Assembly: GCA_963771325.1 (NCBI GenBank)
Contig: CAVYTJ010000023.1
Span: forward strand, 11,963 to 75,962
Length of the DNA: 64,000 nt
Reading direction: 5' to 3'
Source: an uncultured delta proteobacterium
GTDB taxonomy: Bacteria; Desulfobacterota; Binatia; Binatales; Binataceae
The notes under the pieces were generated by a model. It did not search any database, had not been told where the DNA came from, and saw only the letters and a list, made by a program, of their open reading frames with translations. Below are positions 30,101 to 42,054 of the stretch, in pieces (the first letter of the stretch is position 1; each line of letters starts with the position of its first letter). The position numbers and the translations under genes are program-made.

Positions 30101-30862
30101 ATGAGCCCGACCGCAATCAGCCTGATCGTGTTCCTATGCGTCTTTGGCGGCGCGATGCTCGGGATGTTCCTGCGGGTCGTTCTGCCGGCGCATCATCTGA
30201 ACGCGGATTCCAGGGATGTGGTAAAGGCCGGGATCGGGCTGGTCGCGACGATGGCGGCGCTCGTGCTGGCGCTGCTGATCGCCTCGGCGAAGAGCTCGCA
30301 TGACACGCAGAGCACCGAGATCGTGCAGATGTCGGCCGACTTCATTCAGCTCGACCGCGTGCTGGCCCACTATGGTCCCGAAACCGAAGATGCGCGCGCT
30401 CAGCTCCGCGCCGTCCTCGCTCGCGGAATTGGTCAGACGTGGGTGGGCGGCAAATACCAGTCCGCGAAGCTGGACTCCTCAGAGATAAAAGCTAGCGCGG
30501 ACAGCTTCCTCGAAAAAATCGAACAACTACGACCGGGCAACGATCTTCAGCGGTCGCTTCGCGATCAGGCGATGCAAATCATGGCGGATTTGGGCCGCAC
30601 GCGCTCGCTGCTGATGGAGCAGACGAGCGGCTCGATTCCGATACCGTTCCTGGTCGTGCTGGTTTTCTGGCTGGTGATCATCTTCGTTGGCTTTGGCCTG
30701 TTCGCGCCCGCCAACCCAACTGTGGTCTCCGTTTTGCTCGTGTGCGCGCTGTCGGCCGCCGGCGCAATTTTCCTCATCGTGGAACTGGATCGGCCGCTCG
30801 AAGGGCTGATCCAGATTTCCGACGCGCCGCTGCGCAACGCGCTCGCGCATCTGGGGCAGTAG
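30101..30862 (+). CDS. membrane protein, DUF4239-like (tentative)
   Basis: Two N-terminal and two C-terminal TM helices flank a helical soluble region. The family name comes from architecture only. Confidence 0.55.
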   Translation: MSPTAISLIVFLCVFGGAMLGMFLRVVLPAHHLNADSRDVVKAGIGLVATMAALVLALLIASAKSSHDTQSTEIVQMSADFIQLDRVLAHYGPETEDARAQLRAVLARGIGQTWVGGKYQSAKLDSSEIKASADSFLEKIEQLRPGNDLQRSLRDQAMQIMADLGRTRSLLMEQTSGSIPIPFLVVLVFWLVIIFVGFGLFAPANPTVVSVLLVCALSAAGAIFLIVELDRPLEGLIQISDAPLRNALAHLGQ

Positions 30863-30912
30863 CCTAAACTCGCGCGGCCAATGCTCGAGATCCGGGCGCG
30901 CCGAGCGGCCGG

Positions 30913-31353
30913 CTACCTGCCGAAATTTTCTCGCATGCGGGTAAGCAGGCGGAGCGAAGGCCGCGGCCGGGAAGCCCAGGCAGGTATCTGGATTGGAGCC
31001 ACAGGAGCCACACTGCCGGGCTGATCGCGTCTGCTGTGCGATGGCGGACGTAAAGCCTCGGCACGAGCCATCGCCGCCGATATGAACGCTTCGAGCACCG
31101 GGCACGGGCCTTCGCCGAAGGTATTGAATCGCCGGAGACTTTCTTCGCCGCTTATCGGAACTTGATCTTCGTCGAGGACCGCGACCTTGCTCCCGCAGAC
31201 CAGGAAGCTGGATTTGCATCGGACGCAATAGTAAAGGCGCGCCGCGCGCCCGAACAGATCGCTGTGACGCTGCGGTCCGATCACGAAGTCGTGCCTGAGC
31301 CGCGTCGTCGTAAACCCGTCCTGCAAGCTCGTGCTTTTGCGCCAGAAGTTCAT
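30913..31353 (-). CDS. hypothetical CxxC mini-protein (paralog of 3439..3798)
   Basis: Start set at the ATG just downstream of the predicted -12 element, because the upstream part of ORF 30913..31491 lies in the duplicated non-coding module. Carries the YYCVRCKSSF...GPCP motif. Confidence 0.5.
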   Translation of the reverse strand: MNFWRKSTSLQDGFTTTRLRHDFVIGPQRHSDLFGRAARLYYCVRCKSSFLVCGSKVAVLDEDQVPISGEESLRRFNTFGEGPCPVLEAFISAAMARAEALRPPSHSRRDQPGSVAPVAPIQIPAWASRPRPSLRLLTRMRENFGR

Positions 31354-31360
31354 GATATGG

Positions 31361-31485
31361 CCTAAGCGCAAGTTCCATACCGTGGAGAGATCTTTCAAAA
31401 TCGCAAGCAAAACAGGACGTTTCCGCGCACTATTCATACCCACCTTGCTGCAAAAGGAACGATGCACTGCATTTTGAAATCCCGC
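31361..31485 (-). promoter_or_regulatory. copy 1 of duplicated ~120-bp enhancer-promoter module
   Basis: Aligns without gaps to 37942..38067 (90 of 120 positions identical by hand count). Strongest block: CTGCTGCAAAAGGA.CGA.GCA....ATTTTGAAAT. Confidence 0.7.
31366..31383 (-). promoter_or_regulatory. sigma-54-like -24/-12 element (copy 1)
   Basis: Minus strand acGGTATGGAACTTGCgc, with GG-to-GC spacing as in TGGCAC-N5-TTGC. Conserved in copy 2. Confidence 0.45.
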
Positions 31486-31529
31486 TCCCAACGACCGCTT
31501 TGGTGCTGCATGCGGCGATAGCTAGGGGG

Positions 31530-32582
31530 TCACTTGATGCCCCAGCGCTTTCGTTTGCGCCAGAGCGTAGACACGTTTATCCCAAGGATCGCGGCGGCCT
31601 CATCGAGGGTGCGGCTCTCCGCGAGCACGCGCAGGATGTACTCGCGCTCGCGCTCCTTGAGCCGTGCTCCATTCCCGTTCGAGATGCACACCCCGGACGC
31701 AGCCTTACGAACGGAGTCGGGCAGATCGTCAGGCGCGATCGTGTTCGTGTGCGCCAAGGTCATTGCGCATTCCAGGGCGTTGCGAAGCTCACGGATGTTT
31801 CCAGGCCATCGATAGGCGACGAGCGCCTCAGCCGCGTCCGCAGAGAGAGTAAACGGTCTGCCAGCACTTCTCGAGCGGGCTTGCCTGAGCATCCATTGCG
31901 CAAGCGGAAGGATGTCCTGAATTCTCTCGCGCAAGGGCGGGAGCCTAAAGGTAATTACGTTGAGGCGATAGTAGAGGTCCTCGCGAAAGCGTCCCGCCGC
32001 GACTTCGTCCTCCAGGTTGCGGCTCGTGGCTGCGATCATCCGAACATCCACCCCGATCGCCCGATCGCCGCCGGTCGGTTCGAAACTGCGTTCCTGAACG
32101 AAGCGAAGAAATTGTGCCTGGAGAGCAGGTGTGAGCTCGGCGATCTCGTCGAAAAACACCGTTGCGCCCCGAGCCACCTCGAAGCGGCCGGGCCGATCGT
32201 CCACTGCGCTGGAAGAGGCCCCGCGCACGTGACCGAAGAGCTCACTCTCCAGTCCCTGGTCCGCCACAGTCGTGCAATTGACTACTACGAACGGCCGCTC
32301 GCGCCGAGGGCCCCATCGATGAATCTGTATTGCGAGAACGTCCTTGCCCGTACCGCTTTCTCCCGTGAGCAGTACAGTTGCGTCGCCTGCCGCGGCCCGC
32401 GCCGCGGTCTCCAGAAGCTCGCTCATTTCGGGATTGCGCGATTCGAGAAGCGGCAGGTCCTCGGCCGGCTCCTTCGCAAGCCGCGGCCATACCGTTTCGA
32501 CGCTGTACGATTTTCGAATCTCCATGACTTCGCAAGACTTAGTAAGACTTCGTACTTTCGAAGAAGACCCTGGAGACACCAC
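31530..32582 (-). CDS. sigma-54-interacting-type AAA+ transcriptional activator with a short N-terminus and degenerate GAFTGA
   Basis: Walker A GESGTGKDVLA, Walker B VFFDEI, REDLYYRLNV, WPGNIRELRN, and a C-terminal Fis-type HTH (AAAILGINVSTLWRKRKRWGI). The GAFTGA position reads GASSSA. Only about 60 aa precede the AAA+ core. Confidence 0.85.
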   Translation of the reverse strand: MVSPGSSSKVRSLTKSCEVMEIRKSYSVETVWPRLAKEPAEDLPLLESRNPEMSELLETAARAAAGDATVLLTGESGTGKDVLAIQIHRWGPRRERPFVVVNCTTVADQGLESELFGHVRGASSSAVDDRPGRFEVARGATVFFDEIAELTPALQAQFLRFVQERSFEPTGGDRAIGVDVRMIAATSRNLEDEVAAGRFREDLYYRLNVITFRLPPLRERIQDILPLAQWMLRQARSRSAGRPFTLSADAAEALVAYRWPGNIRELRNALECAMTLAHTNTIAPDDLPDSVRKAASGVCISNGNGARLKEREREYILRVLAESRTLDEAAAILGINVSTLWRKRKRWGIK

Positions 32583-32602
32583 TCGATGTTCGTCGGCGGC
32601 AA

Positions 32603-33622
32603 CTAGCCTGTTGGGGCCCCATAGCGCTTGCGCAATTCGAGGTTGACCCGCAGAACGTTGACCATCCTCTCGCCGAATAGTCCGTTCATCGGCGCATACG
32701 CATCAGTCTGGATGATTGCGTTGATCTCACTGCGGACCTGGGCCGGGTCACGCTTCAGCTCCGTTGCCCACTTCGATGCCACACGGTCAAGCTGATATTG
32801 CGCATTGTCCATCGTGATATCGGGATCCAGACCGGAGCCCGAAGTGGTCACCATGTCGCCGGGAACATTTGCCAGATCGGCATCGGGATGGTCTTGGCGC
32901 CACATATCGAAAAAGATCGACTGTATATCCGAGCCACTAGCTACCGGTGCGATAGAGGTTTGAGTCTTACCGTTTGGCAGTTGCGTCGTGACCTGCGAGG
33001 GGAACTTGCCCGGATTGTCCTTGGAGAAGTTTTCGAAGAACACAACGGCCAGGTCCGAGGCCTGCGGCTGCGGAGTACCCGGATTCTGCTTTATCCAATC
33101 CGTCACTACCGCCTTGTGGCTCTTGGCCCATGCATTGACATATTGGGCGTGCGACGGGTCGGCGCTCACCCAACTTTGCGCGAGCTCGTTATGGTTGTCG
33201 GCCCATTGCGCGACGATATTCGCCTTGCCCTGGTAGCGATCCCGTTGAAACCACGCCTCCACATCGGGCGCGGCCAACTGGCCGGCTTTGGCACCGCTTT
33301 TATACTTGACGATCGGACCCAACATCCGCGCCACGCGATCGCGGAGCAGGTAGTTTGACGCGGCGAGCGTCGATGAGGCGGATGCGGACGCGTCGTATGA
33401 CGCCGCCGAAGGCCGCGGCCAAAAGTATTCATCCTTGGTGAATGGCTGCGCAATCAGCAGCGAGCCGACCTGTTTGCCGTCCGGTCCGGTAACCATGCTC
33501 CCGTTGGCGGTAAACGGAAAGAAAGTCTGTCCAATCGCCCATACCGCCAAAGGATAGATCAGGCAGCAGACGACCACCGACGAGCCCAACAACCAGAGAC
33601 TCTTTGTTATGTAAGTTCGCAT
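32603..33622 (-). CDS. kdpC: K+-transporting ATPase subunit C, long form
   Basis: N-terminal TM helix plus YPLAVWAIGQTFFPFTANGS...GSLLIAQPF...YFWPRPSA, and C-terminal TSGSGLDPDIT...VNVLRVNLEL KdpC motifs. A large insert separates them. Confidence 0.85.
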   Translation of the reverse strand: MRTYITKSLWLLGSSVVVCCLIYPLAVWAIGQTFFPFTANGSMVTGPDGKQVGSLLIAQPFTKDEYFWPRPSAASYDASASASSTLAASNYLLRDRVARMLGPIVKYKSGAKAGQLAAPDVEAWFQRDRYQGKANIVAQWADNHNELAQSWVSADPSHAQYVNAWAKSHKAVVTDWIKQNPGTPQPQASDLAVVFFENFSKDNPGKFPSQVTTQLPNGKTQTSIAPVASGSDIQSIFFDMWRQDHPDADLANVPGDMVTTSGSGLDPDITMDNAQYQLDRVASKWATELKRDPAQVRSEINAIIQTDAYAPMNGLFGERMVNVLRVNLELRKRYGAPTG

Positions 33623-33650
33623 CGCTTGTTGTCCTCTAAAAAACCGATCG

Positions 33651-35822
33651 TCACGCAACCATGTGCATCGCGGTCAGAACGACGTCGATGAGCTTTATTC
33701 CAATGAAAGGAAGAACTACGCCGCCGAGGCCCCAGACCAGAAGGTTCTTGCGCAGTAGCGCATCGGCGCCGAGCGGCCGGTACCTGACCCCTTTAAGCGC
33801 GACCGGAATCAAAGCCGGAATGATGAGCGCGTTGAAGATTACCGCCGACAGTATTGCGGAGGTCGGCGAATGCAGATTCATCACGTCCATCGCCTTGAGC
33901 CACGGCAGAGTGCCGGCAAAGAGCGCGGGGACGATCGCGAAATACTTGGCGACGTCGTTGGCCACGGAAAATGTCGTCAGCGCGCCGCGCGTCATCAATA
34001 GCTGTTTGCCGATCTCGACGACCTCGATAAGCTTGGTCGGGTCGGAATCGAGGTCGACCATGTTGCCGGCTTCCTTCGCCGCCTGCGTCCCCGAATTCAT
34101 CGCCAGACCCACGTCGGCCTGGGCAAGCGCCGGCGCGTCATTGGTGCCGTCACCCATCATCGCGACCAGTTTGCCCTCGCCCTGTTCCTTGCGGATGTAC
34201 GCGAGCTTGGATTCGGGCGTGGCCTGCGCGACAAAGTCGTCGACGCCGGCCTGCTTGGCGATCGTCGCCGCAGTCAGCGGATTGTCGCCGGTGATCATCA
34301 CGGTTCTGAGACCCATCATGCGCAGCCGCTCGAAGCGCTCGCTCATTCCGACCTTCAAAATGTCTTCGAGGACGACGACGCCGGCGATCTTGGAATTCTC
34401 CGCCACCACCAGTGGCGTCGCGCCTTTCGAGGCAACCGCGTCGACCACCTGCTCGAGACCGCCCGGAATCTCGCCATTGCTCTGCCGGATGAAAGCGATA
34501 ACCGCATCCGGCGCACCTTTGCGGATGCGTCTCCCGTCGGGAAAATCCACCCCGCTCATCCTGGTCTGCGCACTGAACGCGATGACCTGTACGTCGCTCG
34601 GCGCGCTCAACTCCCTGCCGCCGACTCCCACCGCCTGCGCCGCGATGACGATACTTTTGCCCTCGGGCGTCTCGTCGGCGACCGAAGCGAGCGCGGCAAG
34701 CGCCGCCAGCTTGAGTTGCGAGTAGAGGCCCACCGGTTTGAAGTCGGTGGCGTGGCGATTGCCCACGGTGATCGTGCCCGTTTTGTCGAGCAGTACGGTA
34801 TCGATATCCCCAGCCGTCTCAACCGCCTTGCCGCTCTTCGCGATGATGTTGGCCTGGAGCGCGCGATCCATGCCTGCGATTCCGATTGCGGCGAGCAACG
34901 CTCCGATCGTGGTCGGAATCAGACAGACCAGCAGCGCGACCAGGGTCGGGACGTCCGTGCCGAGGCTTTTCACGGGCTCTGAGAGCCCCAGGTAGCTCAT
35001 CATGTACTGTTCGGCGTTCCAGGCCATCGGCCATATCGGCAGGACAACGATCAGGAAGGCCAGGGTCAGGCCGGACAGCACCAAGGTCAGCGCGATCTCG
35101 TTTGGGGTCTTTTGGCGAACGGCGCCTTCGACGAGCGCGATCATGCGATCGAGGAAGCTCTGCCCCGGAAGTGCGGTAATCTTCACCACGATGCGATCGG
35201 AGATGACCCTTGTTCCGCCGGTGACTCCGGAGCGATCGCCGCCGGCCTCGCGAATAACCGGCGCCGATTCGCCGGTGATTGCCGATTCGTCAACCGACGC
35301 GATCCCGTCGACTATTTCTCCGTCGCTCGGGATGATCTGTCCCGCCGTAACCACGACGCGGTCGCCCGGCCTGAGCTCGGTCGAAGGTACCTCTTCGATC
35401 GTATCGCCCTTTTTGAGGCGGTAGGCGGGAGTCTCGCTGCGGGTCTTACGCAGCGATTCGGCCTGGGCCTTGCCGCGTGCCTCGGCCAGCGCCGTCGCGA
35501 AGTTGGCAAAGAGCACCGTGAGAAATAGCCAGAAATCTAGCGCGATGAAGTAGGTAATCGGCACCTGGCTTGCGGCCGTGCTGACCGCCGCCTGAATAAT
35601 GAACAGCAGCGTGAGCACCGCGCCGATCTCCACCACGAACATCACCGGATTGCTCCACTGGATATCCGGACGGAGCATCACGAACGACTGTATCAACGAT
35701 TCACGCACCAGTTCCGGTTCAAATAGCCTGCGGCTCTTTACCCGCCGCGGCGGACGCGGATGCTCCGGCGCCTGAATCGTGCGTACTGGTTGTGCGGCTG
35801 CTCCCATTTTCGCGCCCTCCAA
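33651..35822 (-). CDS. kdpB: K+-transporting P-type ATPase subunit B
   Basis: DKTGTIT phosphorylation motif, [16 protein letters not shown], and a KdpB-like N-terminus ([11 protein letters not shown]...[11 protein letters not shown]). Confidence 0.95.
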
Positions 35823-35876
35823 ATATTTCGACCCATGGAACCGAACTTCCCTTCCTGGCTTTGGCCAACGATACGG

Positions 35877-37694
35877 CTATCCGCCGAAAGGAATCGGCCC
35901 CAAATGCTCGGCCAGCGGTCCCAGTGCGGCCACCGGCAGGAATAACAACGCGCCGACGATTACGATCGTGCCGAACAGTAGACAGCCGAAGGTGAAGGTA
36001 TCGTCGCGCAAGGTTCCCAGTCCGAACGGAGTTTTCTTTTTCATGCCGAGAAACGCCGCCATCGCGATCGGCGCCACGATCGGCAGATAGCGCCCGAACA
36101 GGATGACCAGGCCGCCGCCGATGTCCCATGGAACCGCTTCGGGCGATGGACTGGGATTGTTGTTCAGGCCATAGCTCACACCCAGGCCGTCGAAAGCGGA
36201 GCCGTTGTTAGCCGACGATGACGAGAACTGGTAAACGATCTCCGACAGTCCGTGCGCGGCCGGGTTGTTCTCCGCCTTGATTCCCCAGTTGGTCGCCGCA
36301 TAAAGGCCCGACGGTTCCAGAATTAGAAATGGATGGACCAGCAGCGCGATCATCGCGAGCGTCATCTCGCGCCCGCCGATTTTCCTGCCCAGGTATTCGG
36401 GCGTGCGCCCCACCATCTGTCCTGCCAGGAAGATGCCGATGATCAGGAACAGCAGCAGGTTGATCATGCCGACGCCCTTGCCGCCGTAGATGCAGTTCAG
36501 CCACATCCCCACGAACGGCGACAGCCCTGCGATTGGGTTCAGGCTGTCATGCTCGCAGTTGATGGCCCCGCAGGTCACATCAACCGTGGCCGCGGCGAAA
36601 GTCGCAGCCGCGGAGGTCCCGAAGCGCAACTCCTTGCCCTCGAGGTTGCCGAGATGCTGATCGACCGGCAATCCGGCCACGGCCGGCAGGGTTATCACGC
36701 GCTTGCCGCCGGGCGCGGTAGCGCTCGCGATCTCGAAAGTTCGGCTCTGCGGATGAGCGGTCAGGCCCGGGTTCGGTTTGAGCGTGTCGAAGTAAATCGC
36801 CCACACGACAGTGCCGATCAACAACAGCAGCATCACCGAGAATATGACCATCGCGTGGCGGAACCGCCCGAGCATCCGGCCGAACATCAGCACCAGCGCC
36901 ATCGGAAACAGCATCATGCAAAAAGTTTCGAAGAAGTTCGTGGCCGCGCTGGGGTTTTCGAACGGATGCGCCGAGTTCATGCCGAAAAAGCCGCCGCCGT
37001 TAGTGCCCATCATTTTCATCGGGACGAAGGCGGCCAGCGGTCCAATCACGATAGTCTGTTGTTTCGGCTGACCGTTGTCCGCCGTTCCCATCGCTGCCGG
37101 TTCGAGGGTCGAGACCTGGTAGTCGTTCTGGTAGGTCATCGGCATGCCCTGCGCCAGGAACACCAGGCTGATCACGAAAGCCGCGGGCAGGAACATGTAA
37201 ACGACTACGCGCCACATATCGACAAAGAAGTTGCCGAGCGCCAAGTCGCCGCGAAGCGCGCGGATGATTGCCGCAAGCGCACACAACCCGACCGAGGCGG
37301 AAAGAAAAAAGTTCGCTATGCAGAAGAAAATCTGGCTGAAATTCGAGAACGCCACGTCGCCGGAGTAGTGCTGCATGTTGGTGTTGGTGATGAACGAGAT
37401 CACGGTATGGAACACCGTGGTCGGCGCCAGCATGCCGAGACCCCGCGGATTCAGCGGCATCCGCGGTTGCAGCGACAGCACGATATAGCCGTAAACGAAG
37501 AGCACGATGTTGAAGGCAAGCAGCGCGACCGTGTACTGCTTCCAGTTCTGCGGGCCGCTATCCAGGCGTTTCTCGAACCATCGCAGCACTCCCGGCGCCC
37601 GGTACTTGCCGTCCATGATCTTCGCCATGTAGCGGCTCAGTGGAACGGCAATGATGATCGTAAAAACAATTATGGAAATAGGCAGAAGCCACAT
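35877..37694 (-). CDS. kdpA: K+-transporting ATPase subunit A
   Basis: 605-aa polytopic protein with KdpA selectivity-filter-like repeats (NTNMQHYSG, GTNGGGFF, SSSANNGSAF). Confidence 0.95.
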   Translation of the reverse strand: MWLLPISIIVFTIIIAVPLSRYMAKIMDGKYRAPGVLRWFEKRLDSGPQNWKQYTVALLAFNIVLFVYGYIVLSLQPRMPLNPRGLGMLAPTTVFHTVISFITNTNMQHYSGDVAFSNFSQIFFCIANFFLSASVGLCALAAIIRALRGDLALGNFFVDMWRVVVYMFLPAAFVISLVFLAQGMPMTYQNDYQVSTLEPAAMGTADNGQPKQQTIVIGPLAAFVPMKMMGTNGGGFFGMNSAHPFENPSAATNFFETFCMMLFPMALVLMFGRMLGRFRHAMVIFSVMLLLLIGTVVWAIYFDTLKPNPGLTAHPQSRTFEIASATAPGGKRVITLPAVAGLPVDQHLGNLEGKELRFGTSAAATFAAATVDVTCGAINCEHDSLNPIAGLSPFVGMWLNCIYGGKGVGMINLLLFLIIGIFLAGQMVGRTPEYLGRKIGGREMTLAMIALLVHPFLILEPSGLYAATNWGIKAENNPAAHGLSEIVYQFSSSSANNGSAFDGLGVSYGLNNNPSPSPEAVPWDIGGGLVILFGRYLPIVAPIAMAAFLGMKKKTPFGLGTLRDDTFTFGCLLFGTIVIVGALLFLPVAALGPLAEHLGPIPFGG

Positions 37695-37731
37695 GGTTTA
37701 ATATCCTCTTCGATTGGCGCTGGATTTGTGG

Positions 37732-37812
37732 CTAGAACCACTCCGGCCGAATCATCGCGGTCACCAGGTAGACGAACGCCAAAGCCGTGACGATGGCTGT
37801 GAAATAGATCAC
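37732..37812 (-). CDS. kdpF: K+-transporting ATPase subunit F (26 aa, GTG start)
   Basis: VIYFTAIVTALAFVYLVTAMIRPEWF: a single TM helix ending in the KdpF-type YL...A(L/M)xRPExF motif. GGAGGG lies 5 nt upstream. Below the ORF-track size cut-off. Confidence 0.75.
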   Translation of the reverse strand: MIYFTAIVTALAFVYLVTAMIRPEWF

Positions 37813-37822
37813 GACACCCTCC

Positions 37823-37918
37823 CTAGATCTTCTCGCACGCGAGTAAGAACGCGTAGCAAAGTCCGAGGCCGGCCAGACCGAGCAGGAACGTGGCTGGGAG
37901 CCAAATTGCAAGGTTCAT
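37823..37918 (-). CDS. 31-aa hydrophobic peptide, first ORF of the kdp transcript (hypothetical)
   Basis: ATG preceded by GGAGGAAACGAG. MNLAIWLPATFLLGLAGLGLCYAFLLACEKI forms a single TM helix. It ends 10 nt before kdpF. Confidence 0.4.
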   Translation of the reverse strand: MNLAIWLPATFLLGLAGLGLCYAFLLACEKI

Positions 37919-37941
37919 CTCGTTTCCTCCGCAATGGCAAG

Positions 37942-38067
37942 CCTAAACGCAAATTCCGTACCGCGAGGAAATCCTTCGAGATCGCAGACAAATCGGAACG
38001 ACTTCGCGAATCGTTCATGCGAACCCTGCTGCAAAAGGACCGACGCATTTCATTTTGAAATGCCCGC
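37942..38067 (-). promoter_or_regulatory. copy 2 of duplicated ~120-bp enhancer-promoter module
   Basis: Gap-free alignment to 31361..31485. Contains the perfect palindrome GCATTTCA-TTT-TGAAATGC (38045..38063) about 85-100 nt upstream of the -24 GG. Confidence 0.7.
37947..37964 (-). promoter_or_regulatory. sigma-54-like -24/-12 element upstream of the kdp operon (copy 2)
   Basis: Minus strand gcGGTACGGAATTTGCgt, with the same spacing as copy 1. It lies about 30 nt upstream of the first kdp-operon ATG. Confidence 0.5.
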
Positions 38068-38111
38068 GGATGATTGGGCCGAATGATTGGAGAGGATTGG
38101 AGCGTTTGACA

Positions 38112-38125
38112 AATGAACGTTCATT
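38112..38125 (+). promoter_or_regulatory. 14-bp perfect palindrome AATGAACGTTCATT (candidate TetR operator)
   Basis: Immediately follows a TTGACA hexamer (38106..38111), about 130 nt upstream of the tetR ATG. Confidence 0.45.
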
Positions 38126-38253
38126 CATTAGCGGTGATAGAGGAGCACTAGCGGACAAATCGCCTCGGGGCGCCGCGCTTTCGCCCGGCGCCGCGGCGGG
38201 ACGCCAACCTGACAACCTCTCCCCAAACTTCGCTCTCCAGGGGGATCGCAACG

Positions 38254-38895
38254 ATGGCCGAACCGCTCAGAAACCAGAACCAGGACGAGACGCTCGTGCG
38301 CGCGCGGCGCCAGCAAATCTTCGCCGCCGCTTGCCGGGTGCTCAAACACAAGTCGTTTCACGAGGCCACGGTAAAGGAGATCGCGCTGGAGGCAAGATTG
38401 GCCGCCGGCTCGATCTACGTCTACTTGCAGAGCAAGGACGACATCCTGCTCTTGCTGGCCGAATCGATGGTCGCGGAGCTGGCCGAGATGCTGCCGCAGA
38501 TCCGCGGCAAGAGCCGTGGCGAGCCGCGGCGCGAGCTGCTGGAGCTCATGCGCGCGGCGATCGACGTAATCGACCGCTACCGGGAGGCGTTTTGCGTGCT
38601 CAACCAGGAGGTGCGCTACTTGGCGCGCCGCCCCGAGTACCGCGTCGCGCTCAAACAGATCGTGGGCCGTTACACCTCGACAGTCGAGAACGTGCTCGAA
38701 CGCGGACGCAAGATGGGCGTGATTTTCTACGACGATCTGCGAAGCGTGGTCCAGGCGGTCCACATGCTGTGCTCGGGCTGGGCGATGGGCGCCGACTACC
38801 TGGGCAAGACCGACAAGGAAACTTACTGGCGGCAGGTCGCGGCGCTGGTAGAAGGCCGTTTCTTCGACGCTGGCAGGCGCGGCGCGGAAATCTGA
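38254..38895 (+). CDS. TetR/AcrR family transcriptional regulator
   Basis: N-terminal HTH RRQQIFAAACRVLKHKSFHEATVKEIALEARLAAGSIYVYLQSKDDIL. Confidence 0.9.
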   Translation: MAEPLRNQNQDETLVRARRQQIFAAACRVLKHKSFHEATVKEIALEARLAAGSIYVYLQSKDDILLLLAESMVAELAEMLPQIRGKSRGEPRRELLELMRAAIDVIDRYREAFCVLNQEVRYLARRPEYRVALKQIVGRYTSTVENVLERGRKMGVIFYDDLRSVVQAVHMLCSGWAMGADYLGKTDKETYWRQVAALVEGRFFDAGRRGAEI

Positions 38896-38898
38896 AAG

Positions 38899-39534
38899 GT
38901 GGTGCGGCTGAACATGGAAATTTACGACCGGCGCACACTCGAGGGCGTCTACAGCGTCCGGCAAAGCGCCGGCTTCATCATGAATTACCGCTACGCCGAA
39001 GAGCGGATGATGCGAATGATGGCCGGATGGATCGCGCTTACGCCGGAAATTCCGGTCAAGCTCGAGATGGCGCGCCAGGTCTACGAGTGCGCGCTGCACG
39101 CCGACGCGCTGGGCAAACGTCTGGGCGAGTTGCGCTCGCAGGCCCAGGTCTCGCGTCCGCCCAACGAGGCGTTCGTCACGTTCATGAACGCGATCGAGGA
39201 CAAGGAGCAGTGGGAGGACACGGTCGAGCGGATGGCCGGGATTTACCGCGTGCTCAAGCCGCACCTGGTGGCCCACTACAGCGCCCACGTCACCGCGGCC
39301 AACCCGGTCTACGAGCCGCCGACGCTCAGGATCCTCGCCCACCTGGTCGACGACGAAAAACGCCACATCGAGCGCGGCCTGGTTCTGCTCGACAACCTGC
39401 TCGACACGCCGGAGAAGCATCGCCGCGCCGCGAGTTGGCAAGCGCAACTTGACGAATTGCTCGCGGCCTCGGGCGGCGTCACCGGGATGGAACGCGATCG
39501 CGAGGAGCCGCTGCGGCTCGGGCGCAGCCGATAA
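38899..39534 (+). CDS. ferritin-like four-helix-bundle protein, hypothetical
   Basis: Helical protein with carboxylate/His motifs spaced as in di-iron bundles (YAEERMMRMMAGW, YECALHAD, VDDEKRHIERG). Lies 3 nt after tetR. Fold assignment is an inference. Confidence 0.55.
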   Translation: MVRLNMEIYDRRTLEGVYSVRQSAGFIMNYRYAEERMMRMMAGWIALTPEIPVKLEMARQVYECALHADALGKRLGELRSQAQVSRPPNEAFVTFMNAIEDKEQWEDTVERMAGIYRVLKPHLVAHYSAHVTAANPVYEPPTLRILAHLVDDEKRHIERGLVLLDNLLDTPEKHRRAASWQAQLDELLAASGGVTGMERDREEPLRLGRSR

Positions 39535-40431: not shown

Positions 40432-41232
40432 ATGCAGAAAATGATCGCGGTAGACCGGCTCGCGCGTCCCGACGAACACATCCTGGTCCCGGTCGAGCGC
40501 ATCCGCGAGGCACGGATCGACCAGGGACTACAGGCCAACAACGTGATGCCCTTCGAGGAGGACTTCCTCAAGGGGCGGCTGCATGGAATTGCCACCGGCG
40601 AGATGCAGGCGATGGAGGCGGCCGGGCGCACGCTGTTCGATTTTCCCGACGCGCCGTGGGATTTCCAGCTCGACATGGCGCGCCAGGTGTGGGACGAATC
40701 GCGCCACGCCGAGATTTTCGCCAAGCTGCTCGAGTACGTCGGCTCCTATATCGGTGAATTTCCCGAAAGCGAAATCCTGTGGTCGTGCACCCAGGTCGAC
40801 GACCCGGCCTGCCGCGTGGCCGGAATCAACCGCGGCCTGGAGGGACTCGCCTGCGACGTGTTCGAGCAGATCATCCGGATGGGACAGAAGATGGGCGACC
40901 CGATTATCGAGCGCGCCGTCGACTACGTACTGGCCGACGAAATCACGCACGTGCGGATGGGCTCGAAGTGGATGCGCAAGCTGACCGAGGGCGACCCGGA
41001 GCGGCTGCAACGCGCCCAACAATTCCAGGACAATATCGACGCGCTGTTCAATTTCGACGGCTTCCGCACCTCCAAGGAGGAAGCGCCGCAGGTGCCGCTG
41101 ATGCTGGGCAGCCAGCAGATTGATTTCGACGCGACGCTGACCATTTCGCGCGAGACGCGCCTGCTGGCCGGCTTCACCGACGAAGAGATCGATCGCCTGA
41201 TGAAGGCCGCCGCGCGCAGTTCCGCCTACTGA
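40432..41232 (+). CDS. DUF455-type ferritin-like (putative di-iron) protein, copy 1
   Basis: Four motifs in DUF455 order: GEMQAMEAAGR, WDESRHAEIF, NRGLEGLACDVF, ADEITHVRMGSKWM. Confidence 0.75.
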   Translation: MQKMIAVDRLARPDEHILVPVERIREARIDQGLQANNVMPFEEDFLKGRLHGIATGEMQAMEAAGRTLFDFPDAPWDFQLDMARQVWDESRHAEIFAKLLEYVGSYIGEFPESEILWSCTQVDDPACRVAGINRGLEGLACDVFEQIIRMGQKMGDPIIERAVDYVLADEITHVRMGSKWMRKLTEGDPERLQRAQQFQDNIDALFNFDGFRTSKEEAPQVPLMLGSQQIDFDATLTISRETRLLAGFTDEEIDRLMKAAARSSAY

Positions 41233-41289: not shown

Positions 41290-42054
41290 ATGCAGAAAAT
41301 GATTCCCGCCGATCGCCTCGCCCGCCCCGACAACTTCGTCCTGCTGCGCGCGCGCAAGATGCGCGAAATTCGCGAGGAGCAGGGCCTCGACGATCGCGTG
41401 CTGCCTTTCGACGAGGAAGCGCTGCGGGTGCGCCTGCACGGCATCTTTGCCGGCGAGTTGCAGGCGATGGAGGCCGCGGGACGCACGCTGTTCGACTTTC
41501 CCGACGCGCCGTGGGAGTTCCAGCTCGACATGGCGCGCCAGGTCTGGGACGAGTCGCGGCATAGCGAAATTTTCATGCGCCTGCTGCAGTACATGGGCGC
41601 CGAGCCGGGCGACTATCCTGAAACCGAAATCCTGTGGCGTTGCACCCAGGCCGACGATCCCGCGGCCCGCGTGGCCGGGATCAACCGCGGCCTGGAGGGA
41701 CTCGCCTGCGACGTCTTCGACCAGTTAATCCGGATCGCGCAGAAAAACGGCGACGAGATTATCGAGCGCGCCGTCGACTACGTGCTGGCCGACGAGATCA
41801 CTCACGTGCGGATGGGCTCGAAGTGGATGCGCAAGCTGACCGAGGGCGACCCCGAGCGGCTAAGGCGCGCGCAAGAGTTCCAGGACAGCGTCGACGACCT
41901 GTTCAATGCGCGCGGCGCGCGCAAGGCGATCGACGATGTCGGGGCAAACTCGCAGACCATCACGATCGCGCGCGAGGCGCGCCTGCTGGCCGGCTTCACG
42001 GAAGAGGAAATCGACCGCCTGATCGCGGCCGCTCGCGCGAGCGCCGCTTACTGA
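41290..42054 (+). CDS. DUF455-type ferritin-like (putative di-iron) protein, copy 2
   Basis: Tandem paralog of 40432..41232 with the same four motifs. Both start MQKMI..DRLARPD. Confidence 0.75.
   Translation: MQKMIPADRLARPDNFVLLRARKMREIREEQGLDDRVLPFDEEALRVRLHGIFAGELQAMEAAGRTLFDFPDAPWEFQLDMARQVWDESRHSEIFMRLLQYMGAEPGDYPETEILWRCTQADDPAARVAGINRGLEGLACDVFDQLIRIAQKNGDEIIERAVDYVLADEITHVRMGSKWMRKLTEGDPERLRRAQEFQDSVDDLFNARGARKAIDDVGANSQTITIAREARLLAGFTEEEIDRLIAAARASAAY

Follow-up and report, generated by a model that had tools for sequence, protein, structure and literature searches.

Knowledge of how kdp genes are regulated comes almost entirely from the KdpD/KdpE, sigma-70 paradigm. The locus described here lies in a 64,000-nucleotide (64-kb) stretch of contig CAVYTJ010000023.1 from an uncultured member of the Binataceae (the window, by which we mean this whole stretch), and it carries a kdpFABC operon and a gene for a small cysteine-containing protein (the CxxC gene), each directly preceded by one copy of a duplicated non-coding module of 125 nucleotides (nt) that very probably acts as an enhancer-dependent sigma-54 promoter. 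The genes that follow copy 2 all lie on the minus strand, in the order 31-amino-acid (aa) peptide, kdpF, kdpA, kdpB, a long form of kdpC and the gene for an AAA+ bacterial enhancer-binding protein (bEBP); copy 1 starts 46 nt past the bEBP stop codon and stops 7 nt short of the CxxC ATG. A Bestrophin-like gene converges on the CxxC open reading frame (ORF). The closest relatives of the locus come from metagenome-assembled genomes (MAGs) labelled Binataceae or 'delta proteobacterium', whose loci are given L numbers below. The main features are as follows.

37941 to 38065, minus strand: module copy 2 (predicted upstream activating sequence, UAS, and predicted sigma-54 promoter), upstream of the kdp operon and alignable with copy 1
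37823 to 37918, minus strand: gene for the 31-aa hydrophobic peptide MNLAIWLPATFLLGLAGLGLCYAFLLACEKI, the first after copy 2 and conserved before kdpF in relatives
37732 to 37812, minus strand: kdpF, a weak match to TIGR02115
35877 to 37694, minus strand: kdpA, its product 90% identical to KdpA of L083 and L084
33651 to 35822, minus strand: kdpB, start codon uncertain
32603 to 33658, minus strand: kdpC, long form of 351 aa with an insert of ~115 aa, matching Pfam KdpC in two stretches
31530 to 32525, minus strand: receiver-less bEBP, 331 aa from the ATG (the ORF reaches a GTG at 32582), with Sigma54_activat, AAA_lid and Fis-type helix-turn-helix (HTH) domains
31360 to 31484, minus strand: module copy 1 (predicted UAS and sigma-54 promoter), lying after the stop codon of the bEBP gene and before the CxxC gene, 93/125 against copy 2
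30913 to 31353, minus strand: CxxC gene, the predicted target of copy 1, 146 aa with conserved H21, C43, C46 and C84 and an Arg-rich tail
30916 to 31010 (approximate), minus strand: degenerate remnant of the ORF for the 31-aa peptide, lying in the +1 frame at the 3' end of the CxxC gene

A sequence-only reading of this DNA had proposed a repeat of ~120 bp without indels, counted by hand at 90 of 120 identities. The repeat is confirmed: the two copies align without gaps at an offset of 6581 nt with 93 identities over 125 positions (74%), the coordinates of that reading being off by 1–2 nt. When one copy was shuffled 5000 times with its dinucleotides preserved, identities averaged 32.8 (sd 5.0) and the best shuffle reached 51 of 125, which places the observed value far above the controls (z≈12). 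When the window was scanned at all offsets, background maxima were ~68–80 per 125 nt, and the single better 125-nt match, 114/125 at offset 855, fell in coding DUF455 paralogues; the module pair is the strongest non-coding repeat of the window. The copies are direct repeats in the same orientation, 6.6 kb apart. A second homology block at offset 6902 (30875..31000 vs 37777..37902, 76/125) indicates that the duplicated unit once reached into the first gene or genes. Within the window, the 15-mer GGTAYGGAAYTTGCG (minus strand) has exact matches solely at 31367..31381 and 37948..37962, and a 35-nt degenerate pattern of the distal block matches exactly twice, once per copy. Among the shared blocks quoted earlier, TGCTGCAAAAGGA, ATTTTGAAAT and GGTAYGGAAYTTGCG are present, whereas the first C of CTGCTGCAAAAGGA is a T in copy 1. 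The placement of each copy immediately before minus-strand genes also holds, with copy 2 ahead of the peptide, kdp and bEBP genes and copy 1 ahead of the 146-aa CxxC ORF.

In gene orientation, each copy consists of a 15-bp palindrome, the block TTTTGCAGCA, a variable stretch of ~40 nt, the motif GATTTG...GCGATYTYGAA and the element cGGTAYGGAAYTTGCg. The palindrome has the consensus ATTKCA-WWW-TGMAAT, and its centre lies at about -117 relative to the predicted transcription start. The parts are located as follows.

38047 to 38061, no strand assigned: predicted UAS palindrome of copy 2, perfect (ATTTCA-AAA-TGAAAT), inverted repeat 38045-38052 / 38056-38063, centre at about -117
31466 to 31480, no strand assigned: predicted UAS palindrome of copy 1, reading ATTTCA-AAA-TGCAGT along the genes, with a 4/6 match in one arm; centre at about -117
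31446 to 31455, minus strand: second conserved block TTTTGCAGCA, copy-2 equivalent 38027 to 38036, 19 bp to the promoter side of the UAS centre
31394 to 31404, minus strand: proximal conserved block GCGATTTTGAA near -45, copy-2 equivalent 37975 to 37985, seen in the aligned modules
31368 to 31381, minus strand: predicted sigma-54 promoter of copy 1, GGTATGGAACTTGC, with -24 GG and -12 GC; predicted start ~31356, ATG at 31353
37949 to 37962, minus strand: predicted sigma-54 promoter of copy 2, GGTACGGAATTTGC; predicted start ~37937, a GGAGG Shine-Dalgarno sequence and then the ATG at 37918

On the plus strand the palindrome region reads GCATTTCATTTTGAAATGC in copy 2 (38047..38061 = ATTTCATTTTGAAAT) and CTGCATTTTGAAATCC in copy 1, and the pattern ATTKCAWWWTGMAAT, allowed up to two mismatches, matches nothing in the 64 kb except the two modules (0.35 matches expected). 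In an alignment of 14 modules the TTTTGCAGCA block is nearly invariant and TTTTGCA invariant, and the block is a possible second (half) site; the GCGATTTTGAA block is a candidate UAS-like half site or site for a bending protein. By eye, no convincing match to WATCAANNNNTTR was seen as an IHF site between UAS and promoter. Both copies carry a -24/-12 sigma-54-type element GGTAYGGAAYTTGC, that is, GG-N10-GC with TTGC, the TTGC being present in all 14 aligned modules and the GG in 13 (the promoter of L085 is out of register in the alignment). Transcription starts were predicted at the canonical position, 12 nt after the C of -12. On these predicted starts the CxxC ATG falls at about +4, with a leader of ~3 nt, so that its mRNA would be nearly leaderless, and in the kdp operon the leader before the peptide gene would be ~19 nt long and contain the GGAGG. 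The variable spacer of copy 2 holds an inverted repeat with an 8-bp stem (37996-38016, GAACGATTCGCGAAGTCGTTC), which is also found in the kdp-side copy of L007 and is absent from copy 1 and the other modules.

Further copies exist in relatives. The comparison of regions upstream of CxxC genes covered 17 other Binataceae loci with the 5' end and upstream DNA (L068, L070, L071, L073-L087); L069 and L072, which duplicate L068 and L071, and L088, which is cut at a contig end, were left out. In all 17 loci, the palindrome, TTTTGCA and the -24/-12 element are followed by the CxxC start codon 14–15 nt after -12. The distance from palindrome centre to -24 GG, measured in 18 modules (the 17 loci minus L086, plus both window copies), is 90–96 nt in 16 of them and 102–103 nt in L081 and L082. 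The longer distance amounts to one helical turn more, which means that helical phase is kept, as expected of a looping enhancer, and the enhancer-plus-promoter geometry proposed for the window is supported across the 18 modules. Module identity is 88% between the orthologous copies of the window and L007, and 74% between the paralogous copies of the window. For the neighbouring genes of the window and L007, dS is 0.16-0.33, from which roughly 75-85% identity would be predicted; the 88% of the module is above this synonymous-site expectation, which argues for constraint on the module.

The module is also found apart from the kdp genes. Orphan module-CxxC loci occur in MAGs that carry a kdp two-component operon on another contig (the pairs L003/L076, L004/L080 and L002/L085), and palindrome and sigma-54 promoter pairs, mostly with similar spacing, precede kdp operons in further Binataceae loci, kinase-regulator operons in L095 and L097, and CxxC-like genes downstream of a receiver-type bEBP in L094 and L098. 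Examples upstream of kdp are TGCATTTTGAAATGC with TGGCACGCGCAGTGCT in L012 and GTGCAAATTGAAAC with CGGCACGCGAGATGCT in L001; sigma-54 promoters of other spelling (TGGTCYGACAATTGCC, TGGCACGCGCAGTGCT and others) stand at the equivalent position in more distant kdp loci. The module thus appears to be the standard cis-element of a Kdp/sigma-54 regulon in Binataceae. The earlier proposal of a small regulon wired by one cis-module is supported, with the qualifications that the two copies are old direct repeats around a kdp cassette and no locally evolved pair, and that the module-CxxC unit is Binataceae-wide and often far from kdp or bEBP genes. The objection that the module might be a widespread repeat unrelated to gene starts fails, since there are just two copies in 64 kb and the copies in relatives sit at gene starts. 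In L095 (6626-6730) and L097 (6368-6472), a second palindrome and sigma-54 pair with 89-nt spacing stands within the kdp locus, before the kinase/regulator genes, and the two-component genes would accordingly be autoregulated from a promoter of their own. Module-CxxC units are likewise found in unrelated settings, beside luciferase-like and DUF3313 genes in L068 (9873-10435) and beside a conjugative type IV secretion/relaxase cluster in L071 (9735-10294); these neighbourhoods suggest that the unit has moved around genomes.

The predicted target of copy 1 encodes a protein with the motif CxxC...C...CP. Its homologues form 97 clusters with identities down to 44%, mostly full-length, and its ratio of non-synonymous to synonymous substitution (dN/dS) against L007 is 0.24, a sign of purifying selection; both observations indicate a real gene. 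The protein has no Pfam or NCBIfam family match, and its AlphaFold2 model is poor (mean pLDDT 58, with only residues ~20-70 reaching ~80); compared with folds of the PDB, the model matched none, the best hit, NrdR, being meaningless (E = 0.5, TM 0.17). In kdp-linked loci, the last ~33 codons of the CxxC gene code twice, with the ORF of the 31-aa peptide lying entirely in the +1 frame (L070 10001-10432; L083 1850-2275; L084 7947-8375). Where one gene suffices, the second reading frame is either degenerate, as in the orphan loci and at window copy 1, or gone through deletion, as at window copy 2.

These arrangements bear on the origin of the two copies. The complete arrangement, namely module-CxxC/peptide-kdpF-kdpA-kdpB-long kdpC-receiver-less bEBP, is present in L070, L083 and L084, and an 'empty' site with a TetR flank followed by module-CxxC and no kdp cassette is present in L075, L078, L079, L081, L082 and L085, among which L075 and L085 also retain the Bestrophin-like gene on the far side. 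The window and L007 both run TetR, module 2, peptide, kdpFABC, bEBP, module 1, CxxC, Bestrophin. On the kdp side, L007 keeps an internally deleted CxxC remnant (MKRWSKRAGRCPVLETF...), and in the window the kdp-side CxxC gene was apparently lost wholly, between two TGCCAT repeats. The two modules are therefore direct repeats on either side of a kdpFABC-bEBP cassette, and the repeated unit would have comprised module, CxxC and peptide; later, the copy on the kdp side would have lost its CxxC gene by deletion, and in the other the peptide gene would have decayed. The duplication predates the split between window and L007. The kdp-side module is 45-47% identical to the modules of the 'complete' loci L083 and L084, no closer to them than copy 1 is, and module similarity is compatible with either cassette insertion or loss at the 'empty' sites.

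Regulation of kdp by a sigma-54 system has a precedent. The response regulator DVU3334 of Desulfovibrio vulgaris, which depends on sigma-54, controls its own kdpFABC operon, as determined by DNA affinity purification-chip (DAP-chip; Rajeev et al., 2011, Genome Biol 12:R99, PMC3333781), and the kinase there is divided between two proteins, one of the KdpD-sensor/Usp type and one with HisKA (PMC3333781). The sites in Table S9 of that study upstream of kdpF or its orthologues are CGTTACATTTTGTAACGG (-149) in DvH, GATTACAAAATGAAATAT in DvMF and CGTTTCATTTTGAAATGT in Syntrophobacter (Sfum) (PMC3333781). The copy 2 palindrome, TTTCATTTTGAAATG, is identical to the Syntrophobacter Sfum_2621 site at 15 of 15 positions, and the DvH and DvMF sites fit the same pattern. 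Similarly, in the relatives L001-L004, kdpFABC occurs with a KdpD-N/Usp protein (388 aa), a HAMP-PAS-HisKA kinase (594 aa) and a REC-Sigma54_activat-HTH_8 regulator (443 aa), the same split layout as in D. vulgaris; a receiver regulator with KdpD-N/Usp and kinase is present in L001-L004 and L089-L092, and not at the window locus. The HTH, including the recognition helix TLWRKRKR, is essentially alike in receiver-less and receiver-type proteins, and this shared helix makes the transfer of the DVU3334 binding motif reasonable. Like DVU3334, the window regulator is an NtrC-family protein with a Fis-type HTH, encoded at the end of the kdp operon and here predicted to target its own operon, with a palindrome RTTWCA-WWW-TGWAAY 150-250 bp before kdpF. 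The system would thus be DVU3334-type sigma-54/NtrC control of Kdp, already known from Desulfovibrio, in a variant form. The variant differs in that the regulator has no receiver, no KdpD or kinase neighbour and a degenerate GAFTGA loop, that the enhancer-promoter is duplicated, with an extra conserved target, the CxxC gene, which carries the module across Binataceae, and that the phylum is Binatota.

Other known systems share single traits with the locus. PspF of Escherichia coli is a receiver-less AAA+/HTH bEBP that serves two sigma-54 promoters (pspA and pspG), each of which has upstream sites of its own, and is controlled by a partner protein and not by phosphorylation. It offers a functional analogy, a receiver-less bEBP with two sigma-54 promoters, and differs in that the window has no PspA-like partner, the predicted targets here encode a K+ pump and a Cys protein, and the regulator is encoded within the operon under control; the window bEBP reached no NCBIfam equivalog threshold (pspF 207 bits vs a cutoff of 443). 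The palindromic site ~100-140 bp from a sigma-54 promoter, with face-of-helix dependence, recalls NtrC/glnAp2 and DctD/NtrC1, from which the present case differs in site sequence and signal. DctD and NtrC1 have a long coiled-coil-like linker, as do the receiver-type Binataceae proteins, whereas the local bEBP lacks both receiver and linker. In E. coli, KdpD/KdpE likewise give dedicated kdp control by a regulator encoded downstream of kdpC; according to PMC3264566, KdpE is an OmpR-family winged-helix activator that acts at a sigma-70 promoter through AT-rich direct repeats, and the locus differs by its -24/-12 type promoter, its palindrome near -117 and its AAA+ regulator.

Taken with the gene contexts, the conserved motifs, their phasing and the identity to a published site make it very probable that each copy serves the Kdp sigma-54 regulon as a complete promoter unit dependent on an enhancer. 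From these data we infer how the units would work, including binding, sigma-54 dependence, the transcription starts and the nature of the activating bEBP. A Kdp-type bEBP (Fis-type HTH, helix TLWRKRKR), as a dimer or hexamer, would bind the palindrome centred at about -117, probably aided by the TTTTGCAGCA block 19 bp away. A DNA loop would then bring its ATPase to the RNA polymerase-sigma54 held at GGTAYGGAAYTTGC, and ATP hydrolysis by the bEBP would open the promoter. The transcript from copy 2 would span the 31-aa peptide gene, kdpF, kdpA, kdpB, kdpC and the bEBP gene, which would place the regulator under its own control, and copy 1 would give the nearly leaderless mRNA for the CxxC protein. 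As equivalent bEBP/sigma-54 units, the two copies would make both transcription units respond to the same regulator.

Reservations attach to the role of the local regulator in this scheme. The bEBP gene lies directly after kdpC, and its product comprises Sigma54_activat (6.8e-57), AAA_lid_14 and HTH_8 domains, begins ~30 aa ahead of the AAA+ core without a receiver domain, and is 88% identical to its counterpart in L007 and 99% to the NCBI Binataceae protein P0098. Walker A (GESGTGK), Walker B (FFDEIAE), the arginine fingers (RFREDLYYRLNV) and sensor II (PGNIRELRN) are intact, and dN/dS is 0.29 (0.24 for the HTH part) against 0.03-0.17 for neighbouring genes, which indicates that the gene is not a pseudogene. 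Several observations nevertheless weigh against the scheme. The loop that contacts sigma-54 reads GASSSA and not GAFTGA (window 32207-32224, codons 104-109), P0098, from an independent MAG, has GASSSA too, and the loops of the nearest relatives are also degenerate (GAFSSA, EAFSSA, GAFSGA, GSFPSA, ESVNGV). The codon of the GAFTGA Phe is TTT in L007 and TCT in the window, a single T-to-C change. A canonical loop (GAFTGA or GSFTGA) is kept by 65 of 94 receiver-less relatives and by all 26 receiver-type relatives. In PspF, region I of sigma-54 is contacted by the Phe and Thr of the loop, and variants of the loop remain active as ATPases but lose sigma-54 binding and open-complex formation (PMC3467059). 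Receiver-less and with a GASSSA loop, the local bEBP may bind and not activate, and the 64-kb window encodes no KdpD, kinase or second bEBP. On the DNA side, the copy 1 palindrome has one weak arm (4/6), the promoter departs from TGGCAC-N5-TTGCW at -26 (C), -22 (T) and -10 (G), and its score is no better than that of chance GG-N10-GC matches in a window of 64% G+C. Moreover, no terminator was found between the bEBP gene and copy 1, so that the CxxC gene could also be expressed by read-through. The sequence-only reading was right to place an AAA+ gene between the copies, whereas the activator role that it assigned to the product may belong to another protein. In our first version of the mechanism, the local bEBP may be a weak or constitutive PspF-like autoactivator; it is about as likely that a receiver-containing paralogue elsewhere would activate and that the local bEBP would only bind or modulate.

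The most serious alternative keeps the same cis-modules and changes the wiring, with the local GASSSA bEBP as an autoregulated competitor or poison subunit and a receiver-type paralogue elsewhere, controlled by KdpD or a kinase, as the activator of both modules; we put its chances somewhat below even. It would form a negative-feedback loop. The lost Phe, the loop degenerate across the closest clade and purifying selection on the rest of the protein fit such a competitor, as does the behaviour of the PspF loop variants, which retain ATPase and lose sigma-54 binding (PMC3467059). Both bEBP types are encoded side by side in L070, L088, L094 and L098, and the receiver-less copy of L088 has lost both Walker B and GAFTGA beside an intact receiver-type bEBP; orphan module-CxxC loci, for their part, must be served in trans. 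However, the window encodes no receiver-type bEBP, the predominance of GAFTGA or GSFTGA among receiver-less members (65/94) implies that the family as a whole consists of activators, and the F-to-S replacement, a single recent nucleotide change, could be a slightly deleterious, lineage-specific mutation and no adaptation. An extended version, in which a receiver-less bEBP with a decaying loop replaced the KdpD-kinase-receiver input and became a self-induced competitor at the enhancer of the receiver-type paralogue, the CxxC protein being a new post-transcriptional partner or regulator of Kdp or the bEBP and the module-CxxC unit a homology target for gain and loss of the cassette, strikes us as unlikely in its entirety; if true, it would build negative feedback onto the K+-sensing receiver-type paralogue.

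The remaining alternatives deny the modules a role as sigma-54 promoters or as regulatory elements at all, and each is far less probable. Copy 1 could be a scar of recombination or duplication without a regulatory role, the CxxC ORF being read through or silent: the copies are direct repeats around a cassette, relatives have an 'empty' site, no terminator precedes copy 1 and its palindrome has the weaker arm. Yet a copy-1-type module with the same motifs and spacing stands before the CxxC gene in many genomes without a kdp cassette there, the copy 1 module exceeds synonymous sites in its 88% identity with that of L007, and the CxxC ORF is under selection (dN/dS 0.24) in a family of 97 clusters; conservation across cassette-less loci largely refutes a dead scar, which we regard as very unlikely. 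Much the same low standing belongs to a sigma-70 promoter region with sites for another factor, the GAFTGA-less bEBP acting at that promoter, or with sites for the neighbouring TetR protein. GAFTGA-less TyrR and Rhodobacter capsulatus NtrC work with sigma-70, the local bEBP likewise lacks a canonical GAFTGA, and a weak -35/-10 match lies upstream of copy 2 (38112..38083). Neither module contains sigma-70-like hexamers, however, so that a sigma-70 promoter inside them is not supported; the invariant bases are GG and TTGC at exact -24/-12 spacing, the operator-like TetR palindrome is missing from copy 1, and genomes with a canonical GAFTGA in their kdp bEBPs have the same modules. A structured RNA can likewise keep its length while its sequence drifts, and kdp genes in some Firmicutes are under riboswitch control, which would make the module a transcribed 5' leader, riboswitch or small RNA. 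This is highly improbable: a Rfam search of 30500..38400 gave no match at E up to 1, RNAalifold on 11 modules gave -2.46 kcal/mol with an unfavourable covariation term, no compensatory pairs and no conserved structure, and what is conserved is a DNA palindrome and a -24/-12 element, with the start codon just 14-15 nt after -12; on the Rfam and RNAalifold results the RNA element was rejected. Least probable of all is a dispersed mobile repeat of the miniature inverted-repeat transposable element (MITE) or repetitive extragenic palindromic (REP) kind. Two copies in the same orientation 6.6 kb apart could suggest one, but the 64 kb hold just these two, terminal inverted repeats and target duplications are lacking, and the distance to the start of the same gene family (14-15 nt from -12) is fixed in 17 other loci; it was rejected on copy number and gene-start position.

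If each module is a bEBP-dependent sigma-54 promoter unit, then the sigma-54/NtrC-type kdp scheme, documented so far by DAP-chip in Desulfovibrio only, would be standard in the uncultured soil phylum Binatota. The analysis defines its putative enhancer (ATTKCA-WWW-TGMAAT at about -117), the phasing and the regulon, adds a conserved Cys protein as a predicted member and reveals a large family of receiver-less Kdp bEBPs. The motif could be used for annotating kdp regulons in metagenomes.

Some features of the operon vary between relatives. Compared with the KdpC of L001 (200 aa), the insert takes up residues ~128-243. In the operons that were compared, long KdpC occurs mainly with a receiver-less bEBP (L070, L083, L084 and the window), but L096 and L100, in which no such bEBP was detected, have it as well. 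The operon is also mosaic. Between L007 (4849-8921) and the window (33651-37694), KdpA is only 52% and KdpB 64% identical, against 88-96% for the peptide gene, kdpF, the initial 35 aa of KdpA, KdpC and the bEBP; L083 and L084 have KdpA and KdpB at 88-90% identity to the window proteins. These values suggest replacement of kdpAB by recombination in one lineage.

The flank beyond copy 2 contains two further features.

38254 to 38895, plus strand: TetR-family gene, divergent from copy 2
38112 to 38125, before the TetR gene: operator-like palindrome AATGAACGTTCATT, perfect, a marker of the resident flank of the locus, overlapping a TTGACA hexamer (region 38106-38125)

The palindrome AATGAACGTTCATT and the TTGACA are probably operator and promoter of the TetR gene. 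L075 and L082, both orphan loci, have the TetR-type palindrome within ~20 bp of the Kdp-type one, and interference between TetR and bEBP is possible there. DUF455-related genes follow at window positions 38899-39534, 40432-41232 and 41290-42054. Two of them are tandem paralogues that share a 300-nt stretch of 79% identity (offset 855; locally 114/125), and the third, a distant paralogue with ~25% aa identity and no Pfam DUF455 match of its own, adjoins the TetR gene. The pair of TetR and the first paralogue is kept at 85-99% aa identity in many Binataceae loci.

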